A stretch of DNA of 33,803 bases, taken from assembly GCF_003334335.1 (NCBI RefSeq), contig NZ_QOWQ01000045.1, one strand, 5' to 3'. Shown here piece after piece: positions 15,001-18,000 of the stretch. The stretch's first letter is position 1. Every line of letters starts with the position of its first letter. Made by a program: the position numbers. The DNA is from Escherichia coli (GTDB lineage Bacteria > Pseudomonadota > Gammaproteobacteria > Enterobacterales > Enterobacteriaceae).

Positions 15001-18000
15001 ACGGTGTGGTGTCACTGCCACGTACAGGCAAGGGATTCACCATCGGCGGGCGTGAAAGTAAGCAGGCCATGGGGCGTGCATCCCGCGCACAGTCTCCTTC
15101 CACTCAGGCGATACAGGATTTGAGCGAATCGCTGATCCGCAATCGCAAAAATGAAGTGGGTAACGCCTTCCTGAAACTGGTACAGGATAATCCAGACAAG
15201 GATTACTGGCAGGTATTCACCAATGAGCGACCGGACACCATGCGTGCGATTGCAGAGCGTGTTGATCCGGAAACCGGTGAAACCCGTCGCGAAGTTGTCG
15301 AACGCCCTGTGCCGATGGCAATGATGGCGGATCGCTACTTCACCACCAAAAAGGACGGCAAAACTTACTACATTAAACTTCATGATCCGCGCCTGATGCG
15401 TGCGATGAAGAACATGGGGCCGGAAACCAGTAACGCCGTAATCCGTACGCTGGGGAAAGTTAACCGCTTCCTGGCAACGGTGAACACGTCGTATAACCCG
15501 GAATTTCTGGTCAGTAACTTCATCCGTGACGTGCAGACGGCGGTGATGAACCTGAAGGCGGAGCAGGGAAGGAGCGACGGTAAACTGAAAGGGCTGGATA
15601 ACTTATCCGCCCTGGCTGTAGTCAAAGACAGCCGTTCTGCAATGTCAGCCGTGTACGCCAGTCTGCGTGGCAAAACCCTCACGGGCAAAGGCGCACAGTG
15701 GCAGAAAGTGTGGAAAGAGTTTGTTGAGGACGGAGGTAAAACCGGCTGGTTTAACATGGGTGACCTTGAAGGCCAGCAGAAGGAAATGGATCGCCTTGTA
15801 TCGCTGGCGAAGGGAGGATGGAAAGGCCAGAGTATCGGTGCATGGCATTCGTTCCTGAACCTGGTCGAGGATGCCAACGGCGCGGTTGAAAACGCTCTGC
15901 GTCTTTCTGCCTATAAACACGCCCGTGATGCCGGTTTGTCACGCCAGCAGGCGGCGTCTCTTGCCAAAAACATGACGGTGAACTTTAACCGTCGTGGTGA
16001 GCAGGGAGCGCTGATGAACTCGCTGTATATGTTTGCCAACGCCAGCATTCAGGGGACCGCAAACCTGGTGAGAACGCTCGGACATCTTAATGGCGACGGG
16101 CCGTTACTGGAGCGCCTTCGCTGGAAGAATCTCAATGTACCGCAGAAAATCGCGCTTGCAGCTGTGGGAGCGGGTTATCTGCTTGGCTCGCTTAACCGCA
16201 GTGTGGCGGGTGAGGATGATGACGGGGTTAACTGGTACGACAAGGTGCCGTATCATGTGAAAGAGCGTAACCTCGTCATTATGAAATCGATGTTCGGGGG
16301 CAGGGCCGGAGAGTACTGGAGTATTCCTCTGCCTTACGGGTACAACGTTTTCTTCCTGCTCGGGCATACCTCTGAAGGTGTGGCTGCTGGTGACCTGACG
16401 GCGTCCCGTGCTGCCGGTAATGTTGTCGGTGGTATCCTGGGGGCATTCAGCCCGATTGGCAGTGAGACGTCGGAAACGCTGTCCGGGGCATTGCTGAAAA
16501 ATGCAGCACCGACAATTCTGCGTCCGTTTGCGAATCTTGCCATGAACGAAAACTTCATGGGGGCGCAGATTTACCAGGAGAACATGCCGTTTGGTACACC
16601 AAAACCTGACAGCCAGCTGGGAAGACGTTCAACGCCAGAAGCGTACAAGGCGTTTGCATCCTGGCTGAATGCGTTCTCAGGTGGCAGCCAGTATCGTCCC
16701 GGCGCGGTGGATATCACACCGGAATCGCTGAAATTCTGGATTGACTATATCTCCGGAGGGACAGGGCGCTTCATTTCCAAAACCACGGATGCGGCGGTGA
16801 AATCGCTGAATGGTATTGATATACCGGAACAGCAGGTGCCCTTCCTGGGGAAAATTTCGGGTGAGGTGATGCCGTATGCAGACCAGCAGAAGATGTACGA
16901 CCGGATGACAGAGGTTGCGCAGTATCACGCAGAGCTGAAGAGTCTGACCGGTGCAGAAAGAACGGCGTTCATTGACGAGAACAACGGAAAATTGTTGATG
17001 AACGGGCTTATGCAGGATACCCGGAAGAGACTGAAGGATTTGCGCAAACAGCGCGATGCCATTTATGCCGACAGTTCTCTCAGTCTGGCGCAGCAGGCGG
17101 CGATGGTGAAATCGGTAGAGCGGGATATGAAGGTTGCCGTGGATCGCTTTAACCGCGAGTACAACAAAAAAGTGGGAGTGGATTAACAGAAATGGCCCCG
17201 TACGGAAGTGCGGGGCTGATTAAGAAATAAACACACATTAACCTGTAATAACCGGAGCTATTAACATATAGTCAGAAAGAGTATTTCATGTGAGACAGAG
17301 AGCCGATTTATGTTTAATGAAGAAAAAGTTGCGTAAATGGCAGCGTATTTGCTGAAAAAACATGGCGGATCTATGCGTTTCATTAAGCTGATGTATCTCT
17401 CTGACCGCAAAGCAATGGAGTTGTATGGTTTTCCCATTAGTGGTGATCATTATTTCTCTATGAACAAAGGACCCGTTTTATCGCAGACATATTCTTTGGT
17501 TAAGGATGGAAGTGAAAACGAGTACAGTCCGTGGGAATCATGGATATCTGATGTAGCGGATCATAAGGTTGAAATGTGGCGTACATTTTCTTCTGTTGAT
17601 GAGCTGGGGGAGTTATCGCCCGCAGAAATAGAGTCAATGGACATAATTTTTGGTCAATATGGAGGTTGGGATGCGTTCAGGCTTTGTGATGAAACTCACA
17701 GAATTTGCGGTGAGTGGCGCGATCCGCATGGTTCATCAATTCCAATCAGCCTTAAGGATATATTTATTGCTCTTGGAAAGTCGCCAGAAGCAGCAACAGT
17801 AATGGCGAATAGCATTTATGCGCAAAATAATCTTGATATATTATTAAGTGATCTGAGGTAGTCGGGATGATGTTCAGCCCTTATTTGTATTTACCGGGGA
17901 GGGAAGATGTTTAATTCCGATTCCCCGGCTCCACAGGCCTAACCTAACTTTATGTAACAGTCCATGCAGGGCTGAAATCTGCCTGCTGAAATAACTCCGT

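Follow-up and report, generated by a model that had tools for sequence, protein, structure and literature searches.

The DNA examined here, a 33,803-nucleotide stretch of Escherichia coli contig NZ_QOWQ01000045.1 (assembly GCF_003334335.1; hereafter the window), carries a Panacea-domain gene, panA, that stands beside no intact toxin gene and has a TAA directly in front of its apparent start codon. We find this gene to be a damaged representative of an antitoxin family that is already known and has been characterised experimentally; it implies no new system or mechanism. Its intact relatives are paired with a toxin of cluster T6 in two-gene modules termed PanAT, and the window gene is probably a functionless or nearly functionless relic of such a module. 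It consists of the following two parts.

17310-17336, plus strand: original panA start and codons 1-8 (MFNEEKVA), then TAA (17334-17336), read as a nonsense codon in place of the Gln9 codon CAA; from the sequence and comparison with homologues.

17337-17861, plus strand: N-terminally truncated panA open reading frame (ORF), 174 amino acids plus stop, from Met10 of the ancestral 186-residue protein; from Pfam and alignment.

The first-pass annotation had given exactly this layout, with an ATG at 17310, MFNEEKVA, a TAA at 17334-17336 and a second ATG at 17337 opening a Panacea-like ORF that runs to 17861. The protein from 17337 belongs to the Panacea/DUF4065 (PanA) antitoxins by its domain content, since it matches Pfam SocA_Panacea (PF13274) at residues 16-127 (E = 3.1e-19, model positions 2-112 of 113). 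It also matches phrog_1281 and is labelled 'Panacea domain-containing protein' in RefSeq; NCBIfam and PADLOC searches returned no match for this ORF. Read through the TAA, the window encodes MFNEEKVA-stop-MAAYLL and is 41-69% identical, over 95-100% of the length, to relatives of 184-188 amino acids. It is thus a member, with coding interrupted at Gln9, of the T6-type PanA subfamily that starts MFxE(E/Q)KVAQMAAY, is about 185 amino acids long and has no extra N-terminal domain. The 90% cluster of the window protein has 137 members when draft genomes are counted and contains a 186-residue protein (P0281) starting MFNEEKVAQMAAYLLKKHGGSMRFIKLMKLMYLSDR...; among complete E. coli genomes, the gene body is present in 18 of 5426.

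Comparison of sequences identifies the TAA as the nonsense product of a C>T change in a conserved glutamine codon, CAA, and not as the end of a chance frame, because sister prophages have CAA at this position and the residues encoded upstream are conserved in aligned homologues. The junction reads GCG TAA ATG in the window and in all four TAA-bearing alleles examined (L001, L004, L005 and L006), which form one allele group that is at least 99.2% identical. It reads GCG CAA ATG in O104:H4, in EDL933 and in the intact L022 allele, with the context ...GTT GCG CAA ATG GCA... in the O104:H4 and EDL933 prophages. The eight residues encoded ahead of the TAA also open P0281, the intact allele (MFNEEKVAQMAAY...). 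When the reconstructed 183-residue protein was used as a query, 220 homologues were recovered, most of them 184-186 amino acids long and covering 99-100% of the query. The family N-terminus is MFxEEKVAQMAAYLL, in which M1, F2, A8, Q9 and A11 are at least 90% conserved across 38 aligned sequences; Met10 is nearly invariant in the Panacea subfamily. The alignment with full-length homologues that the first-pass annotation had proposed as a check thus finds residues upstream of 17337 to be normally present, with no uniform start at the equivalent of that position, and its suggestion that the TAA marks a recent N-terminal truncation is borne out.

Neither the 120 listed homologues nor the 38 sequences in the alignment include a divergent lineage that has an intact toxin and a stop at codon 9. 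Two apparent instances, an E. coli protein (P0004) and a Salmonella protein (P0010) listed as 177 amino acids from MAAYLL, were rejected as independent codon-9 stops once their DNA was found to encode MFNEEKIAQ and MFCEEKVAQ, respectively. The corresponding gene models (L009:5974-6534, which has a good Shine-Dalgarno sequence, and L010:3916-4476) start at Met10 despite an intact MFxEEK(I/V)AQ leader. This start-calling error is of the same systematic kind as the one noted for Pseudomonas moraviensis PanA, to whose NCBI model Kurata et al. added the residues MIFSEQKVAQ (PMC8832971).

The nonsense codon is not the only lesion in the window gene, whose body has also lost three residues:

17384-17385, plus strand: point at which 9 bp are missing in frame, the tandem AAGCTGATG (KLM) being one copy short, equivalent to residues 29-31 of the KLMKLLYLSDR helix; from DNA alignments to L022 and O104:H4.

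Both K29 and L30 are invariant in the 38 homologues. An AlphaFold2 model of an intact homologue (predicted local distance difference test score, pLDDT, 94) places helix 1 at residues 4-18 and helix 2 at residues 24-42; on this predicted structure, the nonsense codon removes about 40% of helix 1 and the 9-bp deletion shortens the signature helix 2. Derived substitutions at conserved columns are found at 17577 (R>W) and at 17663-17665 (H>G). Polymorphisms among the TAA-lineage alleles comprise four nonsynonymous and one synonymous change, a ratio compatible with relaxed selection.

What the window gene has lost beside it is revealed by draft E. coli contigs that retain the intact arrangement at the same locus (L022-L025). 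In these, a giant gene with LPD5, LPD1, MuF_C and LPD38 domains is followed by a 186-residue PanA, a 5-nt gap, a 133-residue toxin (MMFTPYRRGTILAPSG...), DUF551 and other genes, antirepressors and ynfF; ibrAB, the gene pair that follows panA in the window, is absent from beside the PanA-toxin pair. A blastn comparison of L022 with the window gives homology (95.4% identity) over 14394-17884 that ends 18 nt into the toxin gene and resumes only at 20006. Three features of the window lie at this breakpoint.

17867-17914, plus strand: stub of panT (T6/MazF-fold family), 15 codons, MMFSPYLYLPGREDV and a stop; from translation and blastn/alignment to L022.

17885-20005, no strand assigned: segment standing where the intact arrangement has the toxin and about 3.3 kb of genes downstream of it, with a hairpin element, ibrB and ibrA; from blastn with L022.

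17893-17928, no strand assigned: inverted-repeat element ACCGGGGAGGG...ATTCCCCGG; from alignment.

The first six codons of the stub (17867-17884, MMFSPY) are homologous to the intact toxin start MMFTPYRRGT..., and the remainder is unrelated and runs into a stop. The first-pass annotation had seen no small toxin ORF on either side of panA, which holds for intact ORFs but overlooks this stub. Kurata et al. look for a partner within 100 nt in a conserved two-gene locus; the window offers only the six-codon remnant and then the convergent ibrB, and the intact sister allele and every intact relative whose locus was examined have such a partner. The gene is accordingly an orphan in the window, as the first-pass annotation had it, but not a native one, the intact relatives' loci examined all carrying a partner of about 133 amino acids. 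The toxin gene of this lineage, at 80% or more of its length, was found in none of the 5426 complete E. coli genomes, 100 of which contain a 933W-type toxin remnant.

The junction TTGTATTTA between stub and hairpin is a poor fit to a clean one-step microhomology deletion of the toxin, and we rejected that scenario. Assignment of the hairpin to the ibrBA cassette was likewise rejected. The element belongs to the phage backbone, because it is absent from the flank of ibrB in CFT073 and has relatives after the toxin gene in L022 and O104:H4, at the second of which it is also a deletion endpoint. It is present in all orphan-allele loci. Probably it is the old module terminator or a cassette boundary, and it may combine the two roles, a terminator that is also used repeatedly as a boundary for recombination or cassettes in the right arms of 933W-like prophages.

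We identified a gene of about 133 amino acids, with the motif PYRKGTxLAPSGP..HLHIICNDP, directly 3' of every intact panA homologue whose locus was examined. It is present in an E. coli P2-like prophage (L009), a Salmonella lambdoid prophage (L010, with an ATGA overlap), Mixta-type loci (L011-L013) and Pluralibacter (L020). A survey of related loci in an annotated phage collection found it in nine of nine records with a full-length homologue, PhiR5_2 aside (YeP1-3, SKA5, Lys8385Vzw, Sirocco, a Vibrio tectivirus-like element, Klebsiella phi12.5 and a Helicobacter prophage). The partner has no significant match in Pfam (PemK/MazF and CcdB included), NCBIfam or PADLOC, and its sole family matches are to phrog_19071 and phrog_1925, both of unknown function. 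A word-indexed protein search recovered only four homologues of it, and an exhaustive HMMER search was needed to define a family of 3142 representatives (E <= 0.001). Its AlphaFold2 model (pLDDT 87) has a predicted SH3-like barrel resembling MazF, Kid and CcdB, with an extra C-terminal helical extension. The partner is thus kin to MazF, PemK, Kid and CcdB at the level of predicted fold, not a member of those families by sequence.

This partner family is the PanAT toxin cluster T6, because the toxin of a Pluralibacter T6 locus matches the partner profile (hhalign probability 100%). The matching gene lies 3' of P0066 (L020), which is Pluralibacter PanA WP_048253753, and Dataset S1 of Kurata et al. 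gives WP_048253752 as its toxin. The relatives and the ancestral allele thus carry a T6 partner that is absent from the window. Dataset S1 lists 57 T6 loci, antitoxin first and with -4 or -1 overlaps, including the validated P. moraviensis pair and loci of Pluralibacter gergoviae and Photorhabdus (PMC8832971). The P. moraviensis pair has been shown to comprise a toxin that specifically inhibits protein synthesis and an antitoxin that forms a complex with it and neutralises it, and HHpred suggested an EndoA/PemK/MazF-like fold for the T6 toxin (Kurata et al. 2022, PNAS 119:e2102212119, PMC8832971).

Homologous modules occupy positions typical of morons: some adjoin the integrase, some lie close to the portal gene in the variable region of P2, and others separate Q from the lysis genes. 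The intact module is probably a prophage accessory (moron) module. Intact T6-type PanAT modules lie in the variable region beside the portal gene of P2-like phages at L009:5230-6944 and in Pseudomonas phage Sirocco (L016). The portal-adjacent variable region of P2-like phages is known as a hotspot for defence genes. This placement of intact PanAT suggests an anti-phage or exclusion role.

We propose the following course of events. Ancestral 933W-like prophages would have carried a type II PanAT (T6) module just downstream of the giant polyvalent-protein gene, in which, by analogy with the P. moraviensis pair, intact PanA would bind and neutralise a translation-inhibiting toxin of MazF/Kid/CcdB-like fold. 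In the window lineage the toxin gene would then have been lost, leaving six codons followed by a segment that now carries ibrB and ibrA. Freed from selection, panA would subsequently have decayed through the change of Gln9 from CAA to TAA, the loss of KLM, and the R>W and H>G substitutions. With the TAA abutting the ATG of Met10, ribosomes that finish the eight-codon leader may re-initiate and make some of the 174-residue N-truncated protein, for which these genomes would encode no cognate toxin, whether in cis or at another locus. The order of these steps, the loss of function and the stop-restart translation are what we infer from the lesions and the sister loci.

Comparison of sister prophages identified further lesions at the same locus. 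Single genomes have an IS1 insertion sequence within the leader (L008) or an IS3 insertion sequence together with loss of the 5' half of panA (L007). Phages 933W and Sp5 and many O157 phages retain internally deleted remnants of both genes, as the 31-residue L0135 and a 62-residue ORF (L003:4160-4255 and L003:4320-4508). The O104:H4 phage has a 91-residue ORF (L002:4161-4436) produced by one deletion, which extends from codon 39 of PanA as far as the hairpin behind the toxin gene. The families phrog_28947, phrog_1925 and phrog_3658 appear to be built from such panA/panT deletion fragments. Decay of a PanAT (T6) module would thus explain both a partnerless RefSeq 'Panacea domain-containing protein' and the 'hypothetical proteins' of Stx phages (933W L0135, the Sp5 remnant ORFs and the O104:H4 91-residue ORF), as decay stages of one module. 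The result is a decay series at one locus in one phage lineage, in which the toxin would disappear before the antitoxin or at the same time, with erosion of the antitoxin to follow, the expected order.

Several observations weigh against regarding the window gene as a relic. Its body is open for 174 codons and still obtains a strong Pfam score, and the same allele persists in the 18 complete genomes, which come from several continents, as well as in the isolated phage PhiR5_2. Translation could restart at the TAAATG junction. The ratio of dN to dS against the intact allele is about 0.3 by hand count, though this mostly reflects history before the lesions, and the four-to-one polymorphism counts are too small to prove neutrality. 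The functional assignment itself rests on one validated homologous pair and a predicted fold.

These same features could instead mean that the truncated PanA, made by stop and restart, works in trans, neutralising T6-type PanT toxins, whether encoded by co-resident or competing prophages or by abortive-infection modules of the host, and serving as an anti-addiction or anti-defence factor. Phage-borne orphan antitoxins are an established concept (T4 Dmd, cited by Kurata et al., is an example), the ORF is open with a recognisable domain and is kept in the 18 genomes and PhiR5_2, and there would be toxins to meet, as E. coli commonly carries T6-type PanAT modules from other lineages (206 genomes have the Lys8385Vzw type, and the P2-like prophage has one). 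We nevertheless consider such a role unlikely. About half of helix 1 and three residues of the most conserved helix are gone, conserved sites are substituted, and the insertion sequences and deletions in sister lineages indicate a dispensable gene. PanAs have been reported to be specific for their own cognate toxins, the other T6 PanAs of E. coli are only 40-69% identical to the window protein, and none of the complete E. coli genomes contains a close toxin. That the phage keeps the N-truncated PanA as a toxin-less antidote against rival T6 MazF-fold toxins is a conjecture to which we give somewhat less credence again; were it true, an addiction module would, by losing its own toxin, have become a gene for anti-addiction or anti-defence. 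A designed upstream ORF, in which the eight-codon leader and TAAATG would tune antitoxin dosage by translational coupling, is very improbable. Stop and start do abut exactly, Met10 is nearly invariant, and gene callers often choose Met10 even in intact homologues, yet Gln9 is read through in every intact homologue examined, and the stop is limited to the one near-clonal allele group, which is also toxin-less and has a further in-frame deletion.

The first-pass annotation had also proposed that the Panacea protein neutralises a toxic domain of the giant protein or the IbrAB activity. The neighbours that it named, a giant ORF upstream and convergent ibrB and ibrA downstream, are as follows.

8817-17186, plus strand: giant ORF for a 2789-residue polyvalent virion-type protein; from the ORF listing, with domains LPD5, LPD1, MuF_C and LPD38 from Pfam analysis of a homologue.

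17950-18594, minus strand: ibrB, convergent to panA; from annotation.

18579-19805, minus strand: ibrA, convergent to panA; from annotation.

The idea that either neighbour is the partner draws on adjacency and on a co-occurrence, since the window ibrBA allele, at 99% identity or more, is confined to the 19 genomes with the orphan panA. Distributions speak otherwise. The 3' end of the giant gene is present in 360 complete genomes, far more than have the Panacea gene body, and the 933W, Sp5 and O104:H4 phages retain the giant gene with mere Panacea remnants. Homologues of ibrAB occur in 1930 E. coli genomes, the other approximately 1900 of which have copies only 83-84% identical to the window allele and lack the Panacea gene. 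In the intact arrangement PanA adjoins the giant gene with a toxin of its own and no ibrAB, and the window's ibrBA is convergent and lies within the segment that replaced the toxin. Neither the giant gene nor ibrAB therefore depends on panA, and the conserved partner of the subfamily is the 133-residue MazF-fold protein. The giant gene is context only, present with and without panA, and the shared occurrence of the ibrBA allele and orphan panA simply reflects linkage within one prophage lineage. We regard an immunity function toward either neighbour as extremely improbable and favour a relic of a PanAT (T6) module.

The window as a whole contains the right arm of a 933W-like (Stx-phage-type) E. 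coli prophage in ynfG, followed by ynfF and ynfE and continuing to rspAB and the start of another prophage. Positions 12790-21593 match the right end of Escherichia phage PhiR5_2 (PV340546; recorded host K-12) at all 8804 bases. The end of that phage record, at 21593, adjoins a truncated remnant of ynfG (4Fe-4S) at 21611-21694, so that the prophage interrupts ynfG. The start of the other prophage is marked by a second integrase and excisionase pair at 31976-33542, beyond rspB. A scan of 17000-18100 found no sigma-70-like promoter and one trivial hairpin only. The giant gene is intact in the window and annotated as frameshifted in strain G1/2, with a difference in the length of a G run at about window position 9021. 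In PADLOC, IbrA weakly matches BrxP and DndC (PAPS-reductase-like); IbrB resembles ParB.

A comparison with known systems situates the window gene among characterised toxin-antitoxin modules. SocAB of Caulobacter crescentus likewise has a Panacea domain in its antitoxin, but the partner here is unrelated to SocB. SocA is a ClpXP adaptor that promotes the degradation of SocB, which blocks the replication clamp. In the MazEF, Kid-Kis and CcdAB type II systems the antitoxin is MazE, Kis or CcdA, whereas here it is a Panacea-domain protein; the toxin here also differs in lacking a Pfam PemK match and in its predicted C-terminal helical extension.

Far closer resemblance is seen to PanA-PanT (T6) of P. 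moraviensis. The two antitoxins belong to the same Panacea subfamily, with an N-terminus M(I)FSEQKVAQ followed by MAAY in the P. moraviensis protein, and the modules share the antitoxin-first order with an overlap or short gap and a partner family predicted to be EndoA/PemK/MazF-like, the link running through the Pluralibacter and Photorhabdus T6 loci. Unlike that chromosomal pair, the window gene lies in a 933W-like prophage, its toxin is deleted save for six codons, and its antitoxin has the Gln9 stop, the three-residue deletion and the substitutions at conserved sites.

The nearest relatives are found in sister prophages. The 933W-like PanAT of L022-L025 (P0281 and its 133-residue partner) occupies the same position after the giant LPD38 gene and near ynfF, with about 95% DNA identity up to window position 17884, but retains Gln9, the KLMKLM repeat and a complete toxin, and has DUF551 and other genes, not ibrBA, on its downstream side. 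The remnants in 933W (L0135), Sp5 and O104:H4 (the 91-residue ORF), represented by phrog_28947, phrog_1925 and phrog_3658, go back to the ancestral module of the window gene, at this same locus, and 933W additionally retains the internally deleted 62-residue toxin remnant. In contrast to the window gene, these remnants keep CAA at codon 9 and have most of panA deleted. The remnants represent later or alternative stages in the decay of one PanAT module.

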